DNA from: Rhodospirillaceae bacterium
Lineage (GTDB): Bacteria; Pseudomonadota; Alphaproteobacteria; Rhodospirillales; JABHCV01
Length of the DNA stretch: 24,000 nt
Reading direction: 5' to 3'
NCBI GenBank assembly: GCA_013204045.1
Contig: JABMOQ010000007.1
Location: 58,817-82,816 of the forward strand
Shown: positions 7,460 to 17,782 of the stretch, in pieces
How positions within the stretch are numbered: position 1 is the stretch's first letter
How the letters are laid out: the number at the start of each line of letters is the position of its first letter
The notes under the pieces: generated by a model
What the model saw: the letters and a program-made list of their open reading frames with translations, nothing else
The model's database searches: none
What the model was told of the DNA's origin: nothing
Position numbers and translations under genes: made by a program

Positions 7460-8001
7460 TCCTTGTCCTCCATAGCGGTCGCTTTATTGGTCCATTTAAT
7501 GACGTAGAATGTACCCGATAGGAGCGTCGTTACGGCAACAATGACCACCATCATGTCCAAGAATACGCCCATGTCCACGTTAAATCCAAGGCCACCCAAA
7601 ACCAGAGCCGCCAGGACAATCTGTGCGAATGTATTGATCTTGCTGATTAACAACGGCTCCATGGACAATGACAGGGTTACCGTCTGAAACACCAGGGCGC
7701 CACCGATAATCAGGGCATCGCGGAAAACCACCAGAATAACCAGCCAACTGGCCAAATGCTCGCCAAGGCCGAGAGCAATGTAAATACATACCAGCAGCGC
7801 CTTGTCGGCCAACGGATCCAGATAGCGGCCGAGTTCGGTTTCCATATCAAACCGCTTGGCAATATATCCATCGATGGCATCGCTGACCCCGGCGGCCATG
7901 AACAGCCAGAATGCCGCCAGCATCCGGTCATTGAGTATCAACCAAACGGTTACGGGGACCGCCGCCATTCTGGCGATACTGATAAAATTAGGGATATTCA
8001 C
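7456..8001 (-). CDS. pgsA: CDP-alcohol phosphatidyltransferase (phosphatidylglycerophosphate synthase-like)
   Basis: The ORF has NIPNFISIARM and the CDP-alcohol motif DAIDGYIAKRFDMETELGRYLDPLADK. The ORF track starts it at 8031. I prefer the GTG at 8001-7999 because it forms a GTGA overlap with the upstream gene's stop codon (8000-7998). Confidence 0.85.
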   Translation of the reverse strand: MNIPNFISIARMAAVPVTVWLILNDRMLAAFWLFMAAGVSDAIDGYIAKRFDMETELGRYLDPLADKALLVCIYIALGLGEHLASWLVILVVFRDALIIGGALVFQTVTLSLSMEPLLISKINTFAQIVLAALVLGGLGFNVDMGVFLDMMVVIVAVTTLLSGTFYVIKWTNKATAMEDKE

Positions 8002-9110
8002 GGGCTGCCTGATTTCAGGACGAGCACCCAATCGTCGCCTTCCCGATTGATGGCAAGGTCCGCCTGCTCCAGGGCCAGGGCAAGTTGCTCAGGTTGGCCA
8101 ATGTAATTCAGATTCACCCGTGCTTCGTCCAATGACAAAATGACCAGGTCGGACTTGCGGATAACCGCGACACCGCCAAGGCGGCTCCGTATTTCCAACC
8201 AATCTTGCAATCCCTTGATCCTGATTTTCACGGCAATCACGGCCTGCCTGCCGAATTGCAGGACATTGTCACGCTTCCAGTTGTCTTGTATCTGGCGTGT
8301 CAATTCGATGGTCGCCCTAAGCAGCAACTCATCCAGACTTTCACCATCGGCCGAGGCAAAGCTTTTGACCGTGGTTTGCTCCTGCATGGCAGAGCCATAA
8401 CGGGTGACATAAACTTCCACCTCGGGGCGGATGCGGTCGGTGTTCAGGATCGCCTGGGCTACCAGCGTATCACCGGCGTCATAGCGCCCGGCGATTGCCG
8501 CCAAACGCTGCTCATCACCGGCCACCGCCTGCTCGGGTCCGATGGTGGCGATATCAGAGAGATCACCCTTGGGTAACAGCGTCGGCACCAGAGAAAACTG
8601 CGGTGGGTTTTTCTTCCACGCGTCCCGCCACGGGTTTGGTTCGTCCCAGAGCAAAAGGGCACCGGCAGCCTGAAAAACAGGCAACACCAGCACCGGCTTC
8701 GATGTGGTTTCGGCATACGGAATCGCCAGATCAATCATCAGGCGGCGCACATCGTCGGACTTGAAACGGTAATTCAGGGACGCCAGATAACGCACCGCCG
8801 AAGCCTTTTCCTCGGCAACCTCGAAATCCTGGACGAGGGCGGAAATCTGAACATTTCTGGAATCCGGCAACCGGTTGGCATCGACGCTGAGGGTCAGGCG
8901 CTCCAGCAAGCGGCGGAAGGCCGTTTGTTCGCCCTGCGCCAGCGCCTTGTCGCGGGCTTCTGCCGTCGATGCGGCGGTAACATCAACGGTGACGCCGCGG
9001 ACCTCGAAAACACGCTGATCTTCAGCCGCCAGCGAAACCGACGAAAGGACCTGAAAAACAGCCAAAATCGCTAAAACGCGTGTGGTCCGCCTCGGACGCT
9101 GATCGGTCAT
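7998..9110 (-). CDS. DUF2066-type secreted protein
   Basis: The 370-aa ORF has a signal-peptide-like N-terminus (RVLAILAVFQVLSSVSLAAE). FEVRGVTVDV...A..A...A......AF..LLERLT follows, which I associate with DUF2066 proteins found next to purM in Alphaproteobacteria. The assignment is from recollection and has not been searched. Confidence 0.65.
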   Translation of the reverse strand: MTDQRPRRTTRVLAILAVFQVLSSVSLAAEDQRVFEVRGVTVDVTAASTAEARDKALAQGEQTAFRRLLERLTLSVDANRLPDSRNVQISALVQDFEVAEEKASAVRYLASLNYRFKSDDVRRLMIDLAIPYAETTSKPVLVLPVFQAAGALLLWDEPNPWRDAWKKNPPQFSLVPTLLPKGDLSDIATIGPEQAVAGDEQRLAAIAGRYDAGDTLVAQAILNTDRIRPEVEVYVTRYGSAMQEQTTVKSFASADGESLDELLLRATIELTRQIQDNWKRDNVLQFGRQAVIAVKIRIKGLQDWLEIRSRLGGVAVIRKSDLVILSLDEARVNLNYIGQPEQLALALEQADLAINREGDDWVLVLKSGSP

Positions 9111-9115
9111 TGCAA

Positions 9116-9131
9116 ACAGCCCCAGATAAGT
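9116..9131 (+). repeat. left copy of the boundary direct repeat (att-like)
   Basis: The sequence is ACAGCCCCAGATAAGT, starting 6 nt beyond the DUF2066 start codon. It matches 11694-11710 except for one extra A. Confidence 0.6.
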
Positions 9132-9244
9132 TATTGTCGAATATATTTCATTATTTACAGTGAGTTATCAATTTATAATTAATGAAAACCATTCACACAT
9201 TTTTCACACAAGCACATGAAACAATGATGAATACACTTTACACT

Positions 9245-9263
9245 TTTACACATATTTCACACA
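9245..9263 (+). repeat. left copy of the internal 19-nt direct repeat TTTACACATATTTCACACA, within a cluster of TTYACAC motifs
   Basis: It matches TTTACACATATTTTACACA at 11620-11638 at 18 of 19 positions. Further TTCACAC / TTACAC copies lie at about 9192-9263. Confidence 0.55.
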
Positions 9264-9438
9264 AAAAAGGCCCTACCGAACTGCACAATGAGTTATCTGT
9301 TCTCCGCCAGCAACAGAACAAATTTCGTAATTAACTAAATCTGGAAATAATCTAAGCGGATGTTGGCCTTTATTCCATTAACTCGTTAAACTGCGCTTAC
9401 TTATCGTCTTCCTACCGCCGTAACAACAGGAGTGTAAT

Positions 9439-10197
9439 TTGAGTTGGTGCGATAAAATGGCTTCTACGCCAAGTGTTGGCTTCAAACTCGATCACCACTT
9501 TGCTACGGGTGATGCAATTTTTGACGCTCTTGATCCCATTCTGGATAAGTGGGTTGATGGTGAAAAACAATTGTTCACTGTAAAAAAACACGAATCATTT
9601 TCTGTATCATTCGATACAATTGACGGGTTCGTGTATGGAATAGAACCGTCGAAAGTCCATATTTCTTTCAGTCATAAAATGAAAGCAAAACCTGTGAGTG
9701 GTGGACCACCAATAATGGAAATGCTTTCTAGTCCATTACCGTTTACAGAATTGCTGCCTAATGTTTCGGAGCGACTATCTACTACGACCTTGCTTCTACC
9801 TGGCGCCAGCACCCGAAATATTCAACGTGTCGGAATTGTTACTAGTACGGCGGTCGCCGAAGATGAAGTTCCGCCCGGTATTGAGCGATTTATCAAATAC
9901 ATCGGCCGTCCATGGAATAGCTCTGCCGAATGTTTTTCGTTTAGCATCACCACTGAGGTCAATAGCACCTCGGATTGGTCAGACCGATGCATTCACACCT
10001 TAGTTAAACTCGAGGAGCCTGAAGAATTGCTTACCATTGTATTTGACTGGCAGAGGAAATTTACCTCTGGACGGCCAATAACCTCTAATTCATTGAAAGA
10101 GATTTTGGTGAAAGCTGAGAAAGATTCATTAGATTATTTTGAGGATGTTGCAGAAGGTAGCAGATTCGATGAAGACATCATCAACAGCACAACTTGA
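9439..10197 (+). CDS. hypothetical protein, islet gene A (no recognised domain)
   Basis: The ORF is 252 aa. AGGAG (9428-9432) lies 6 nt upstream of the TTG start at 9439; an alternative ATG is at 9457. It has low GC like the rest of the islet. It overlaps the next ORF. I see no nucleotide-binding, nuclease or TM motif. Confidence 0.6.
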   Translation: MSWCDKMASTPSVGFKLDHHFATGDAIFDALDPILDKWVDGEKQLFTVKKHESFSVSFDTIDGFVYGIEPSKVHISFSHKMKAKPVSGGPPIMEMLSSPLPFTELLPNVSERLSTTTLLLPGASTRNIQRVGIVTSTAVAEDEVPPGIERFIKYIGRPWNSSAECFSFSITTEVNSTSDWSDRCIHTLVKLEEPEELLTIVFDWQRKFTSGRPITSNSLKEILVKAEKDSLDYFEDVAEGSRFDEDIINSTT

Positions 10198-10648
10198 GTT
10201 CACGTATTCGGCCCCTGAACCTCTTTCCGGAAAAGAAGATGATTCTTTTGTGTCGAATTCTACGGGAACGGCAACTTCTAATGCGGGCAACGTATCCCAG
10301 TTTCCGAAATTTAGTGGCTATAGGGAAGTGTTGGCAACTACTTCCCGAATGGCTGGGCGGATCAACGCTGCCAGCGTTTCCGACCAAGAATGTCAAACCC
10401 TTCTAAGGGAACGCCAAGATCTCTTAGACAAAAACTTTGATGATACAATCACACGAAAAGAGAAGATCAGGCTTGAGTATATTCGATGGTCGCTCGACAG
10501 AATTGAAGACTCTAAATTTGGCCAGACACTTGATATGTTGGAAAATTCAGTCAGCAAGTATGAGCAATTCTTGTCAGATGTACGCAAGCTTGAAAACCAG
10601 CTGAAGCAGCACTTGAAGAAGTCGCGCTCGAAAAAGAAACTCAAATGA
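10169..10648 (+). CDS. hypothetical protein, islet gene B (Ser/Thr-rich N-terminus, predicted helical or coiled-coil C-terminus, basic tail)
   Basis: The ORF track starts it at 10139 (169 aa). An ATG at 10169 is preceded by AAGG (159 aa). It overlaps gene A by 29-59 nt. Its stop overlaps the gene C start as ATGA (10645-10648). The C-terminal half (QECQTLLRERQDLLDK...KYEQFLSDVRKLENQLKQHLKKSRSKKKLK) looks heptad-like. Confidence 0.55.
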   Translation: MKTSSTAQLEFTYSAPEPLSGKEDDSFVSNSTGTATSNAGNVSQFPKFSGYREVLATTSRMAGRINAASVSDQECQTLLRERQDLLDKNFDDTITRKEKIRLEYIRWSLDRIEDSKFGQTLDMLENSVSKYEQFLSDVRKLENQLKQHLKKSRSKKKLK

Positions 10649-11427
10649 CTAGCAGAAAGGAAAGTAACGGAAATAACCTTCCAGTCCCGGCGCCAGAATT
10701 AGACGAACCACTTGTAACGAGATCAAAAGTCCCTGTCGGCAAAGAATACGGAGAGTATAAGGAATATCTTCGGTATGACTTTTTCCACTCGTGTTCTTAT
10801 TGTACTATGTCAGAAGCTGAGGCTCAAGCAATACGGTTTGTTATCGACCATTACGAACCCCGTAAAGCTCGACCAGAATTGGTGCATGAATACGAAAATC
10901 TTATGTATTCATGCGACGAGTGCAACGTAAGGAAAGGTGATCGTTGTCCACCTGCTGAAGCCCGGGCAGACAATTATCGATTTTTCAGGCCAGACCGAGA
11001 CAAATATCGGGAGCACTTTCAGGGAGATGGCGTTCGACTAAAATCAAAAACCAATGTAGGCAAATACTCTATTCAGGCGTTAGACCTGAATCGATTAACT
11101 CTCCGTAGGCTTCGAGATATACGAAAACGCCTGACGAATTGTGACCGTCATGTGATAGAAGGCGTGTTGGGGCTTAGAAAGTTCCACATTGATCGATTGC
11201 CACCTAGCATAAAGGGCTCAGCTGCTAGAGCAATTCGGCAAGTGGTTGCTGTATCGAACGAACTCGCCGATGGTATCGATGATTTACTTCGAGACTGCGC
11301 CTCTTCTCCCTTAATCGATCCTGACCTAGACTCAAATTCGCGACTTCAAGAAAGAACCGCCAAATTGAAACAGTTAAAGGCTATTTATCCGGGAACCTGG
11401 AGAGCACCTAGAAAAAATCAGAGTTAA
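10645..11427 (+). CDS. HNH (beta-beta-alpha-Me) endonuclease with an uncharacterised C-terminal domain of about 160 aa, islet gene C
   Basis: The HNH core is complete: C50-x2-C53, D68-H69, N85, C90-x2-C93-N94 (HSCSYCTMSEAEAQAIRFVIDHYEPRKARPELVHEYENLMYSCDECNVRKGD, nt 10792-10941). It is translationally coupled to gene B. Confidence 0.85.
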   Translation: MTSRKESNGNNLPVPAPELDEPLVTRSKVPVGKEYGEYKEYLRYDFFHSCSYCTMSEAEAQAIRFVIDHYEPRKARPELVHEYENLMYSCDECNVRKGDRCPPAEARADNYRFFRPDRDKYREHFQGDGVRLKSKTNVGKYSIQALDLNRLTLRRLRDIRKRLTNCDRHVIEGVLGLRKFHIDRLPPSIKGSAARAIRQVVAVSNELADGIDDLLRDCASSPLIDPDLDSNSRLQERTAKLKQLKAIYPGTWRAPRKNQS

Positions 11428-11619
11428 TTGGCACTGGAAAAATGTTCTCTATTGACTAGACCCAAGCCTATGATACTCCACTTTTTTGTGTCTGATGCAG
11501 ATGACAAGCAGACGTATCTACTCGGAATCAGCATAGGTGCGAATCTAGAAGGGTGAAGATACATATGATTTGGTTCACACGCAAAAAATCCAAAAAGACT
11601 TATATTCCCTACACTTACG

Positions 11620-11639
11620 TTTACACATATTTTACACAC
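11620..11639 (+). repeat. right copy of the internal direct repeat (TTTACACATATTTTACACAC)
   Basis: See 9245-9263. It has the same orientation and lies 55 nt (11639 to 11694) inside the right boundary repeat. A TTCACAC copy is at 11573-11579. Confidence 0.55.
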
Positions 11640-11693
11640 GAATAAAAAGTGCTGAAAAAGTGTTTATTTTCAATATGTTTAGAAAAAATAGAC

Positions 11694-11710
11694 ACAGCCC
11701 CAGATAAAGT
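11694..11710 (+). repeat. right copy of the boundary direct repeat (att-like)
   Basis: The sequence is ACAGCCCCAGATAAAGT, 47 nt upstream of the purM ATG. Confidence 0.6.
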
Positions 11711-11756: not shown

Positions 11757-12824
11757 ATGGAGGAAGCCATTAACGGCCTCAGTTACAAGGATGCGGGCGT
11801 CGATATCGACGCAGGCGATGCCCTGGTCGAGGCCATCAAGCCGCTGGCCAAGTCAACGGCGCGTGACGGCGTGGCCTCCGGGCTCGGCGGATTCGGCGCC
11901 ATGTTTGATCTGAAAGCCGCCGGTTTCAAGGATCCGGTGCTGGTCGCCGGGACCGACGGCGTCGGCACCAAGCTGAAAGTCGCCATCGAAGCGGGCAAAC
12001 ATGACACCGTCGGCATCGATCTGGTCGCCATGTGCGTCAACGACCTGATTGTACAGGGCGCCGAGCCGCTTTTCTTCCTCGATTACTTCGCCACCGCCAA
12101 GCTTGACGTTGCCGCCGCAACGGCCATCGTTGCCGGCATCGCCGAAGGGTGCAAACAGGGCGGTTGCGCGCTGATCGGCGGCGAGACGGCGGAAATGCCC
12201 GGCATGTACGCCAAGGGCGACTATGACCTGGCCGGGTTCTGTGTCGGCGCCGTCGAACGCGCCGATATCCTGACCGGTGATAAAGTCGCCGCAGGCGACG
12301 TGATTCTTGGCCTGGCGTCGAGCGGCCTGCATTCCAACGGGTTTTCCCTGGTCCGCCGGGTGGTCGATATCAGCGGGCTTGATTACGCATCGGACGCCCC
12401 TTTCCGGCCCGCCACGTCGCTGGCCGATGCCCTGCTCGAGCCGACCCGAATTTATGTCAAAAGCTGCCTCGCCGCCATTGCTGCCGGCGGCGTCCATGGC
12501 CTCGCCCACATCACCGGCGGCGGTTTGGTTGAAAATATCCCGCGCGTGCTTCCCGAAAATCTTGATGCCGACCTGGACGCCGCCACATGGAAACTGCCGA
12601 CGGTGTTTTCGTGGCTCGCCAAAGCCGGCGGCATCGCGCCAGAGGAAATGGCCCGCACCTTCAACTGCGGTATCGGCATGGCCGTCATCGTCGATGCCAA
12701 ACGTGCCGTTGATCTGACAAAAATCCTGACCGACAACGGCGAAACCGTCTTCACCCTGGGCACCGTGGTCGCCCGCGGCGTGGGCGCGGTGACCATCGGG
12801 AATATCGACTCATGGCGCGGCTGA
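11757..12824 (+). CDS. purM: phosphoribosylformylglycinamidine cyclo-ligase (AIR synthetase)
   Basis: The 355-aa ORF starts [20 protein letters not shown] and contains GLGGFGA.F, DGVGTKL, and [21 protein letters not shown]. Confidence 0.97.
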
Positions 12825-15907: not shown

Positions 15908-17782
15908 ATGCTGCATATCAATGACCTGACATACCGCATCGGCGGGCGGACTCTGTTCGACAAAGCCTCGATCGCCATTCCGGCCGGTCACAAGGCCGGG
16001 CTGGTCGGCCGCAACGGTACCGGCAAGACCACATTGTTCCGGTTGATTCTGGGCGACCTGGCCGCCGACGATGGCAGCCTAAACGTACGCCCCAGGATGC
16101 GGATCGGCACCGTCGCCCAGGAAGCGCCGTCGGGCGCGCAAAGCCTGCTGGACAGCGTGCTGGCCGCCGATACGGAACGCTCGGGCCTGCTCATCGAGGC
16201 CGAAACCGCCCATGATCCGACCCGCATTGCCGATATACACACCCGCCTGGCCGATATTGACGCCCACACGGCCCCGGCCCGCGCCGCCGCCATTCTGGCC
16301 GGGCTTGGCTTCGACGACGCGGCGCAAGGACGACCCTGCTCGGAATTTTCCGGTGGCTGGCGTATGCGTGTGGCCCTTGCCGCGGTGCTGTTTTCGGCCC
16401 CCGACCTGTTGTTGCTGGATGAGCCGACCAACCACCTGGACCTGGAAGCCACCATGTGGCTGGAAAGCTATCTGGCAGCATGGCCTGGCACCCTGCTGGT
16501 GATCAGCCACGACCGCACCCTGCTGAATGTGGCGGTTGATGAAATCGTTCATTTGCAGGCGCAGAAGATGACCCGTTACGCCGGTGGCTATGATCGCTTC
16601 GAAAATACCCGACGCGAACGGCTGGCCAACGAATCCAAGATGCGCACCAAACAACTGGCTGAACAAAGCCGCATCCAGTCCTTCATCGACCGCTTCAAGG
16701 CCAAGGCGACAAAAGCCAAGCAGGCGCAAAGCCGGGTCAAGATGCTGGAAAAAATGAAACCCATCGCTTCGGTCATGGAAGAACGCACCGTCGAGTTCGA
16801 TTTTCCCACCCCCGACGCCCTGCCGCCGCCGCTGATCACCCTGGATGCCGCCGTCGCCGGCTACGAAGAAGGCAACCCCATATTGCAGGGCCTCAACCAG
16901 CGCATCGACATGGACGACCGCATCGCCCTGATCGGCGCCAACGGCAATGGCAAATCGACCCTGGTCAAGCTGCTCTCGGACCGCTTGCAACCCATGGCTG
17001 GTAAAATCATCAAGTCGTCAAAATTACGGGTCGGCTATTTTGCCCAGCACCAGACCGAAGAGCTCAACGTCGCCTCGACGCCCTTTCAGGAAATGGCCAG
17101 CCGCATGCCCAGCGCCCCCGAACACCGGGTCCGGGCGCAGTTGGGACGCTTCGCCTTCGGCTCGGATTTGGCCGACAATGCCATCGCAAAACTTTCCGGT
17201 GGCGAGAAGGCGCGGCTGTTGTTCGCGCTGATGACCATCGACAAGCCCCATATCCTGCTTCTCGACGAGCCGACCAACCATCTGGATGTGGATTCACGGG
17301 AAGCGCTGGTCCACGCGCTGAACGCCTACGAAGGCGCCGTTATCCTGGTCAGCCATGATCCGCACCTGGTCGAACTGGTGGCCGACCGGTTGTGGCTGGT
17401 CGATAAAGGCGGCTGCGCCCCCTTCGACGGGGATCTGGGAGATTATCGCCAATACCTGCTCGATGCCCGCCGCGGTGGGCGCGCCGAAAAGAACAAAAAC
17501 GGCGGCGGCAAGGTCAACCGCAAACAGGCCCGCAAGGAACGGGCCGAGGCGCGGGCCAATTCAACGGACCAGCGCGGCGCCGCCAAGGCGGCCGAAAAAA
17601 ATCTGGAAAAGCTGGAGAAAAAAAAGGCCGATCTGGAAGCAAAGCTCGCCGACCCGAAAGTCTATGAGGGCTCGACCGCCGGGCTGATGGAATTGCAGGT
17701 CAAACTCAGCGACATCAAAAGCCAACTGGCCAAGGCCGAGGAAGCGTGGCTGGCGGCCGAGGAAAAGATCGCCAAAGCATAG
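15908..17782 (+). CDS. ABC-F family ATPase (two ABC domains plus a charged C-terminal coiled coil)
   Basis: Two Walker A motifs (GRNGTGKTT, GANGNGKST) and two LSGG signatures (FSGGWRMR, LSGGEKAR) are present. There is an inter-domain linker and no TM segments. The ORF is 624 aa. Confidence 0.93.
   Translation: MLHINDLTYRIGGRTLFDKASIAIPAGHKAGLVGRNGTGKTTLFRLILGDLAADDGSLNVRPRMRIGTVAQEAPSGAQSLLDSVLAADTERSGLLIEAETAHDPTRIADIHTRLADIDAHTAPARAAAILAGLGFDDAAQGRPCSEFSGGWRMRVALAAVLFSAPDLLLLDEPTNHLDLEATMWLESYLAAWPGTLLVISHDRTLLNVAVDEIVHLQAQKMTRYAGGYDRFENTRRERLANESKMRTKQLAEQSRIQSFIDRFKAKATKAKQAQSRVKMLEKMKPIASVMEERTVEFDFPTPDALPPPLITLDAAVAGYEEGNPILQGLNQRIDMDDRIALIGANGNGKSTLVKLLSDRLQPMAGKIIKSSKLRVGYFAQHQTEELNVASTPFQEMASRMPSAPEHRVRAQLGRFAFGSDLADNAIAKLSGGEKARLLFALMTIDKPHILLLDEPTNHLDVDSREALVHALNAYEGAVILVSHDPHLVELVADRLWLVDKGGCAPFDGDLGDYRQYLLDARRGGRAEKNKNGGGKVNRKQARKERAEARANSTDQRGAAKAAEKNLEKLEKKKADLEAKLADPKVYEGSTAGLMELQVKLSDIKSQLAKAEEAWLAAEEKIAKA

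Follow-up and report, generated by a model that had tools for sequence, protein, structure and literature searches.

The 24,000-bp stretch analysed here (hereafter the window), from contig JABMOQ010000007.1 of an uncultured Rhodospirillaceae bacterium, carries an AT-rich islet in the spacer between two divergent host genes, purM and a gene for a DUF2066 protein. The islet (9116-11707) is an insertion of 2,578 bp. It is bounded by short direct repeats, occurs as filled and empty alleles within the species, and holds three genes (A, B and C) between two non-coding arms that are rich in a co-oriented heptamer. No recombinase is encoded in the islet or anywhere else in the window. We consider it probable that the islet is a non-autonomous integrative cassette in which cargo is combined with an attachment site (attP) split into two arms, and that a tyrosine integrase supplied in trans moves it.

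The repeats were first pointed out in a model-made reading of the DNA letters (the sequence-only reading), and they stand where it placed them, ACAGCCCCAGATAAGT at 9116-9131 and ACAGCCCCAGATAAAGT at 11694-11710. The block that the two copies share exactly, here called the core, is 14 nt long (ACAGCCCCAGATAA, at 9116-9129 and 11694-11707). Even with up to two mismatches, the core is found at these two places only in the window; shuffled sequences gave a mean of 0.07 occurrences and 0 of 100 reached two, so the repeat is not a common motif of the window. In 300-nt windows the GC content is 0.59-0.61 up to 9099, only 0.34 at 9100-9399 and 0.38-0.48 across the remainder of the islet, and from 11650 onward it is 0.54-0.64 again. 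The change from about 0.60 in the flanks to 0.34-0.47 in the islet thus sits exactly at the repeats, as had been claimed, and marks the islet as foreign in composition. A weaker similarity had also been noted beyond both copies (GT.AT..TC, TCGAAT). It is real and, taken alone, statistically weak; it gains meaning from a sister element described below, whose extended copies agree at 19 of 23 positions.

Fifteen contigs of the same uncultured Rhodospirillaceae species, from other samples and located through their exact match to the DUF2066 protein, have the site empty. The spacer between purM and the DUF2066 gene is 68 bp long in these contigs and contains a single copy of the repeat, which is the empty site that the sequence-only reading had proposed to look for among close relatives. 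In L001-L008 the DUF2066 protein is identical to that of the window and the sole repeat copy equals the right-hand copy. The empty spacer reads ...GGTCATTGCAA-ACAGCCCCAGATAA-AGTATCTTCTGCTTTCGAATT... with the junction TGCAA-ACAGCCCCAGATAA-AGTATCTTCTGC, and after the repeat it continues with the same sequence as that past the right copy of the window. The flanks of the empty-site contigs are 99.1-99.98% identical to the window (L002 has 7 differences in 13.1 kb). The alignment pieces that BLAST returns for each empty contig overlap by exactly the 14-bp core, which gives the insertion its size of 2,578 bp. The filled allele is also present in another sample, on a 2.8-kb contig (L009) that spans both junctions and is 100% identical to the window. 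Samples known to contain the filled allele are JGI 3300032524 and the source of the window. With empty alleles present, a repeat that is rare in the window and a GC step at the repeats, each refuting condition named in the sequence-only reading came out in favour of an insertion. Outside this species, the closest DUF2066 protein in the database is only 75% identical.

The two copies of the repeat differ in what surrounds them. The right core together with the sequence after it equals the empty site. The left copy is a hybrid junction, with host sequence on its left and element sequence on its right, and it leaves the empty-site sequence right after the core while keeping partial similarity to it. 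A hybrid of this kind is predicted for an attL/attR pair and is not predicted by an exact target duplication flanking unrelated element ends. Of the two origins that had been offered for the repeats, the hybrid junction thus favours the attachment-site pair over the target duplication. The islet and the host genes beside it are laid out as follows.

7998-9110, minus strand: host DUF2066 gene (Pfam PF09839, E = 6e-22), its start codon 5 bp from the left repeat
9116-9129, plus strand: attL core, the left 14-bp copy, with host sequence on the left and element sequence on the right
9130-9438, plus strand: left (P') arm, 309 bp, non-coding, 34-40% GC, its first ~165 bp alignable with L119
9192-9262, plus strand: five co-oriented TTYACAC repeats (starts 9192, 9203, 9237, 9245 and 9256), candidate arm-type integrase-binding sites
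9439-10197, plus strand: cargo gene A, 252 aa
10145-10648, plus strand: cargo gene B, ~160-169 aa, a Joint Genome Institute (JGI) gene call whose start is uncertain (10139, 10145 or 10169)
10645-11427, plus strand: cargo gene C, 260 aa, PtuB-like HNH nuclease (Pfam HNH, E = 1.3e-6)
11428-11693, plus strand: right (P) arm, 266 bp, non-coding, 38-39% GC, the 155 bp nearest the core alignable with L119
11574-11637, plus strand: three co-oriented TTYACAC repeats (starts 11574, 11620 and 11631)
11668-11680, plus strand: motif TTTCAATATGTTT, resembling a binding site of integration host factor (IHF), 26 nt before the core; a relaxed-pattern match and weak evidence
11694-11707, plus strand: attR core, the right 14-bp copy; core and following sequence equal the empty site
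11757-12824, plus strand: host purM (Pfam AIRS and AIRS_C), which keeps only 63 bp of its native upstream sequence

Apart from the three genes, which all run in the same direction, the islet consists of its two arms, whose 575 bp (309 + 266) agree with the earlier estimate of about 570 bp. The heptamer TTYACAC occurs nine times on the plus strand of the window and never on the minus strand, and eight of the nine lie within the arms. Its shorter form YACAC is present 11 times in the 575 bp of arms, compared with 2.4 +/- 1.5 in dinucleotide shuffles, none of which reached 11 (0/2000). The pair at 11620/11631, spaced 11 bp, mirrors the pair at 9192/9203 on the other arm. When the element is closed as a circle and the [TC]ACA[CT] core of each site is counted from the start of the repeat core, the pairs fall at -72/-61 and +78/+89, with further sites at -118, -84, +116, +123, +131 and +142. 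The IHF-like motif is at -26.

In a lambda-type attP, a short core has arm repeats 60-140 bp off on both sides and a bend site between. By analogy, the arms of the islet look like the split attP of a lambda-type (heterobivalent) tyrosine integrase. The likeness extends to a core common to element and target (14 bp in the window, 19/23 positions in the sister element), a total length of about 300 bp, multiple repeats in each arm that differ from the core and lie 60-140 bp away from it, and, between arm and core, an AT-rich motif resembling a bend site. The islet differs in having neither int nor xis adjacent, and the TTYACAC consensus has been matched to no known integrase. Searches of the arms against Rfam returned no structured RNA at E <= 1, and matches in promoter and terminator scans were not above those in shuffled sequences. 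We also considered the arm motif as a regulatory feature of the A-B-C operon and rejected this, because among about 60 A-B-C loci only the window and one other locus, L054, have paired TACAC-type sites on both sides.

The sister element occupies the same site between purM and the DUF2066 gene in another Rhodospirillaceae species, known from a metagenome-assembled genome (MAG) whose DUF2066 protein is 75% identical to that of the window. It spans 1,421 bp (L119 3603-5024; also in L120 and L123-L132), has a GC content of 38% against 55% in its flanks and is bounded by CAGTTCCAGA(A/T)CA. Its arms are homologous to those of the window, with 73% identity over +1..+165 of the left arm and 66-69% over the 85-155 bp of the right arm nearest the core. 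Over the following 150 bp towards the interior the identity is 48-55%, as low as in shuffled sequence. For scale, a divergent-promoter region of the host is 62% identical between the two species, and purM, DUF2066 and purN are 78%, 74% and 72% identical at the nucleotide level. The arm sites of L119 (-72, -61 | +78, +89, +123, +130, +141) repeat the layout of the window almost to the base, and the IHF-like motif is again at -26, found with the same relaxed pattern. The cargo is altogether different. It is a single ORF (open reading frame) of 291 aa on the opposite strand (L119 3937-4812), unrelated to A-B-C; it matches no family and has no homologues beyond its own cluster, which makes it an ORFan. 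There is no integrase in the L119 islet either.

Comparison of the two elements suggests that the arms are their conserved and presumably functional part and that the cargo is exchangeable. Since the cargo of L119 is unrelated to that of the window, no cargo protein can be the cognate recombinase. Homologous arms around unrelated cargo, in two elements without an integrase, indicate that the arms are the mobility determinant and that the enzyme has to be provided from outside the element.

By their gene tables, four other species have the site empty, those of L121/L122, of P0136 (16 contigs read, ten of them fetched as L133-L142), of L145 and of L146. The site is thus empty in five of the six species sampled, the species of the window holding the empty alongside the filled allele. 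The empty spacers that were read, in the species of the window, L121 and L133, contain a conserved attB and no trace of the arms (...TGCAAAC.G...CAGAT.AAGTATCTT...). The species of L119 is filled in 13 of 13 contigs read (L119-L120, L123-L132). With the site empty in five of six species, the empty spacer is best taken to be ancestral, the two filled lineages having gained their elements separately at the same conserved attB. Among the roughly 60 contigs from the six species, none shows an integrative and conjugative element (ICE), an integrative and mobilizable element (IME) or a prophage at this site, although such an element may serve as helper.

A-B-C also occurs without an integrase in att-like islets at tRNA genes. 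In L054 (2122-4731, equal to L057 1994-4603) such an islet measures 2,593 bp and is bounded by the last 17 nt of a tRNA-Leu(TAA) gene. CGCTACA/GTTACAC pairs lie at -81, -68 | +82, +95 and an IHF-like motif, by the relaxed pattern, at -30. The arm architecture thus matches that of the window, and the arm sequences are not alignable. A third islet of this kind, in a Phenylobacterium MAG (L025 7786-10173), measures 2,334 bp and has as its borders a perfect repeat, 54 bp long, that corresponds to the 3' part of a tRNA-Gly(CCC) gene; no TACAC arm motif is present in it. Candidate flanking repeats at L033 and L097 (linked to fragments of insertion sequences, IS) and at L029 (linked to host genes) were rejected as att sites, and repeats of 10-11 nt at a span of about 2.5 kb (L017, L032, L050, L056) are at chance level and were left uncounted.

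The absence of mobility genes, already remarked on in the sequence-only reading, extends well beyond the islet. The islet proteins match no integrase, transposase, relaxase, replication or type IV secretion system (T4SS) family in Pfam, PADLOC, NCBIfam or PHROGs. No recombinase is encoded elsewhere in the 24-kb window, where Pfam searches of the larger ORFs and the annotation of L001 show housekeeping genes only, and no tRNA gene is present in the window, so the target is not a tRNA. The islet DNA, the reconstructed attP and protein A found no match among 72,556 plasmids and 50,697 phage genomes. In IMG/VR there was no match to two conserved arm patterns or to the attL junction, in which the core is followed by the P' arm, the P-core-P' junction itself being outside that search. 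A 19-mer, TTTACACATATTTYACACA, gave 13 matches in IMG/VR that we attribute to chance in AT-rich sequence, as they do not fit the arm profiles.

These observations can be combined into a mechanism. The target would be a conserved attB with ACAGCCCCAGATAA at its centre, located where 68 bp separate the start codon of purM from that of the DUF2066 operon. Entry by conservative site-specific recombination would create attL, composed of the core at 9116-9129 and the P' arm, and attR, composed of the P arm and the core at 11694-11707. Once circularised, the element would have its two arms joined as an attP of about 330 bp, in which paired TTYACAC sites lie roughly 60-75 bp from the core on either side, further sites follow between +116 and +142, and the IHF-like motif stands at -26. 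The junction of the circle would read ...AAAAAATAGAC-ACAGCCCCAGATAA-GTTATTGTCGAAT..., or in a longer form GTTTAGAAAAAATAGAC-ACAGCCCCAGATAA-GTTATTGTCGAATATATTTC across P, core and P'. Because the element encodes no recombinase, the integrase must be supplied in trans; it would come from a helper element or from the host genome, catalyse both integration and excision, and may still be acting today. The arms would be the part under selection, with cargo free to change.

Several points weigh against a cassette moved in trans. Neither a cognate integrase nor an integrase-bearing relative with the same arms was identified, no collection-wide search with the arms having been made. No excised circle or mixture of alleles within a sample was seen, and the P-core-P' junction was not searched in metagenomes or genomes. 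The islet of the L119 species appears fixed, which would also fit an immobile relic there. The presence/absence polymorphism could be kept or spread by homologous recombination across the flanks. The assignment of TTYACAC as integrase arm sites is drawn from geometry alone, and the repeats could be operators, iterons or part of an origin of transfer (oriT). The IHF-like motif, needing a relaxed pattern, is weak evidence. Finally, the islet without the arm motif (L025) implies that A-B-C islets arise on more than one backbone, and repeated decay could also explain this.

Decay is the most serious of the rival explanations. The sequence-only reading had left open whether the islet is mobilised in trans or is a decayed remnant, and we favour the former; a remnant seems unlikely to us. 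It would be an autonomous integrase element that lost its integrase by deletion, its two alleles an old polymorphism shuffled by homologous recombination. This would account for an islet without an integrase and for the seemingly fixed islet of L119. It would also suit the occurrence of A-B-C beside integrases elsewhere (the Bradyrhizobium prophage of L013, and L011), and cis-mobilizable elements (CIMEs) are defined as decay products of ICEs and IMEs. However, decay would have had to produce two members with unrelated cargo, no remnant of an integrase and both arms preserved with site positions conserved to the base, and arm identity of 66-73% against 48-55% just inside points to selection on the arms. 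No arm ORF has similarity to an integrase, the sole arm ORF of at least 60 aa being an implausible 71-aa reverse frame at 11424-11639. Moreover, filled and empty strains differ at only about 0.05% of flanking positions. Less probable again is a chromosomal hotspot or 'minimal mobile element', in which the arms belong to the host, the cargo is swapped by homologous recombination and empty sites are deletions between the repeats. The same arms do carry different cargo in two species, and their divergence (66-73% identity) is of the same order as that of the flanking genes (72-78% nucleotide identity). Yet five of six species have no gene between purM and DUF2066, and the three empty spacers that were read are conserved and free of arms. 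The GC content of the arms is 34-40%, that of their hosts 55-60%, and deletion between the repeats would still require precise recombination across 14 bp.

Two further explanations we regard as very improbable. A transposon-like non-autonomous element, served by a transposase in trans, would turn the 14-bp repeat into a target-site duplication; direct repeats flanking an element without a recombinase are compatible with this, and non-autonomous transposable elements are common. It is contradicted by the lack of terminal inverted repeats (the repeat search found no inverted pair at the two ends of the islet) and of a transposase, and by arm repeats that have the same orientation at both ends. 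The same site is used by the related element of the L119 species, where the flanking copies are imperfect, and in the window the left copy diverges right after the core with partial similarity kept, as an attP copy would. A duplication of 14 bp is, to our knowledge, longer than those made by known transposon families, and at the other A-B-C islets the borders are pieces of tRNA 3' ends, 17 bp long in one and 54 bp in the other. The islet would, alternatively, be an integrated mini-replicon that entered through short homology, with TTYACAC as iterons or DnaA-box-like sites and one of A, B or C as replication protein. Three repeats do fit a relaxed DnaA-box consensus, TTWTNCACA (9200, 9244, 11630), and the circular form would bring 22-nt repeat units together in one AT-rich non-coding region. 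We rejected the DnaA-box reading because these matches are not conserved in L119, and L119 has the same repeats without A, B or C, which leaves no cargo protein as the cognate initiator. Protein A has no Rep-like fold, the plasmid and phage collections named above contain neither protein A nor the islet DNA, and the arrangement of repeats on both sides of the crossover is not explained by a chance site of homology.

Islands bounded by att sites and lacking a recombinase are already known, and the cassette proposed here resembles several of them. CIMEs, found in streptococci and other bacteria, are att-flanked islands without a recombinase of their own that are moved by outside functions; they are decay products of ICEs or IMEs and move in cis after an ICE has integrated alongside (PMC6323972, PMC5704250). 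Like a CIME, the islet is bounded by attL and attR, has no genes for integration, excision or transfer and would depend on the integrase of another element. It differs in that no ICE or IME was seen at its site, in the small size of its members (1.4-2.6 kb), in arms that are conserved between species around replaced cargo, and in targeting a promoter region instead of a gene's 3' end. The microcin H47 island of E. coli was shown to rely on functions from the rest of the genome both to excise and to integrate, for which the term 'parasitic strategy' is used (PMC3191183). It is likewise small, has imperfect direct repeats and lacks recombination genes. At 13 kb, with long imperfect repeats, several crossover segments and microcin genes, it contrasts with an islet that has a short core and arm-type repeats, and its mobility was demonstrated by experiment, whereas that of the islet is deduced from comparison. 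Integron cassettes, too, combine interchangeable cargo with a recombination site and leave the integrase to be encoded elsewhere. In the islet, however, the site is a split attP with arm repeats and not a folded attC hairpin. There is no attC-like inverted repeat at its ends, no intI nearby and no Rfam match; no platform (intI, attI, Pc) and no array are present, and the elements stand singly at a housekeeping promoter or a tRNA gene. The present case is set apart by its size of 1.4-2.6 kb, lambda-like arms conserved across species, the exchange of cargo between constant arms and a conserved housekeeping promoter as target.

The insertion has consequences for the host operon. DUF2066 is the first gene of an operon that continues, by the annotation of L001, with genes for a CDP-alcohol phosphatidyltransferase, an AI-2E permease and an HdaA-like protein. 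Only 6-19 nt separate the crossover from the DUF2066 start codon downstream of it (window 9111-9129, minus strand), so that 2.6 kb now stand between the operon and its entire native promoter, and the divergent promoter region is split by about this distance, as the sequence-only reading had stated. With the native promoter displaced, transcription of the DUF2066/phosphatidyltransferase/permease/hdaA-like operon would have to start in the left arm in the filled allele. That arm presumably contains a promoter for A-B-C as well as one directed outward into the DUF2066 operon, and no convincing sigma-70 match was found in it. The element sequence beside the core partly mimics the host sequence that it replaces, TAACTTATCTGGGG against TACTTTATCTGGGG (window 9130-9200, minus strand).

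The three cargo genes are tightly packed: B overlaps the end of A, and the stop codon of B overlaps the ATG of C. Comparison of about 80 loci with homologues of A against the three proteins of the islet shows the order A, then B, then C in every locus that reaches far enough. Proteins A and B match no ATPase or other family in Pfam, PADLOC, NCBIfam or PHROGs. Protein A begins with a conserved N-terminus, MSWCDKLAS, and its 119 close homologues are all unannotated. A profile search of 1.84 billion protein clusters found 425 representatives of the family, all of about 250 aa and none fused to another domain. Its AlphaFold2 model has a predicted local distance difference test score (pLDDT) of 91 and a predicted template modelling score (pTM) of 0.86. 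Foldseek comparison of the model with PDB gave TM (template modelling) scores below 0.25, with no fold match and no P-loop match. The PDB sequence search was uninformative, and the best match in BFVD is an unnamed viral protein (TM 0.47). The residues S2-W3-C4-D5-K6-L7-A8-S9 are almost invariant and H79, C184, H186, D203, R206 and Y233 are invariant, a pattern that suggests an enzyme or a ligand-binding site of some kind.

Protein C retains the motifs CxxC...DH...N...CxxCN intact in its sequence (C50xxC53, D68-H69, N85, C90xxC93-N94) and has a C-terminal extension of about 150 aa. Its best profile matches are to PtuB (PADLOC, E = 2.9e-17 over residues 37-158), although it scores only 27 bits against NCBIfam PtuB, for which the cut-off is 150, and is below the cut-off of TIGR02646 as well. 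It shares with the Septu system (PtuA-PtuB) and with the retron-Eco7/Ec78 effector an HNH nuclease nearest to PtuB, an operon with obligate partners and a location on mobile islands. We nevertheless rejected Septu as the identity of the cargo, because no PtuA-like ATPase partner is encoded beside C. Further differences from these systems are the score far below the NCBIfam PtuB cut-off and the extra C-terminal region.

The contexts of A-B-C in other genomes suggest a role in defence or conflict, with the module as a putative anti-phage or anti-plasmid system. In a prophage of Bradyrhizobium sp. ERR14 (L013 7001-8948) it lies between the tape-measure gene and the integrase/tRNA-Glu end. It is also found in a region rich in integrases and IS elements, on two IMG/VR contigs and directly beside tRNA and tmRNA genes, which are classical hotspots of integration. 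The position within the L013 prophage is typical for accessory or defence genes. In L070, A-B-C lies between a tRNA gene (141-216) and what appears, judged by eye, to be the 3' end of a tmRNA gene (ssrA, 2553-2661). Two other loci depart from the usual arrangement. In a MAG (L023 8001-10899) the match to A covers residues 1-188 only and B follows about 1.1 kb further on, gene A being apparently interrupted by an insertion. In Brevundimonas (L015/L016 9528-10220) A-B-C stands immediately behind uvrB, and next to it comes another, separate gene with an HNH domain.

A wider interpretation, which we put forward tentatively and consider as a whole less likely to be right than the cassette itself, is that these elements belong to an undescribed class of miniature 'attP cassettes'. 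Such cassettes may be units of 1.4-2.6 kb that combine a lambda-like split attP with exchangeable cargo and, across species, never encode a recombinase. An integrase shared by hosts or helpers may act on them at conserved promoters and tRNA genes, with an economy like that of integrons and a different recombination site. As part of the same interpretation, A-B-C may be a new kind of defence system based on an HNH nuclease, with a sensor protein of novel fold.

If arms alone suffice to mobilise DNA, accessory and defence genes could travel as tiny units, hitch-hiking on some integrase. Units of this kind would be missed by gene-based island finders, which look for an integrase, relaxase or transposase. 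The site offers a test system, with a 68-bp attB conserved across Rhodospirillaceae, an attP of about 330 bp with candidate binding sites, natural alleles and a sister element. The module itself, rare, composed of three genes (A without a fold match, a small B and a PtuB-like C) and inherited as a unit, is a good candidate for an anti-phage function. Control of an essential operon would also be rewired, as the element must either provide or tolerate a new promoter control for these housekeeping genes, among them an hdaA-like replication regulator.

One other repeat of similar length is present in the window, an exact 16-nt direct repeat at 7959-7974, at the start of the CDP-alcohol phosphatidyltransferase gene, and at 16284-16299, in an ABC-F ATPase gene; it probably arose by chance.

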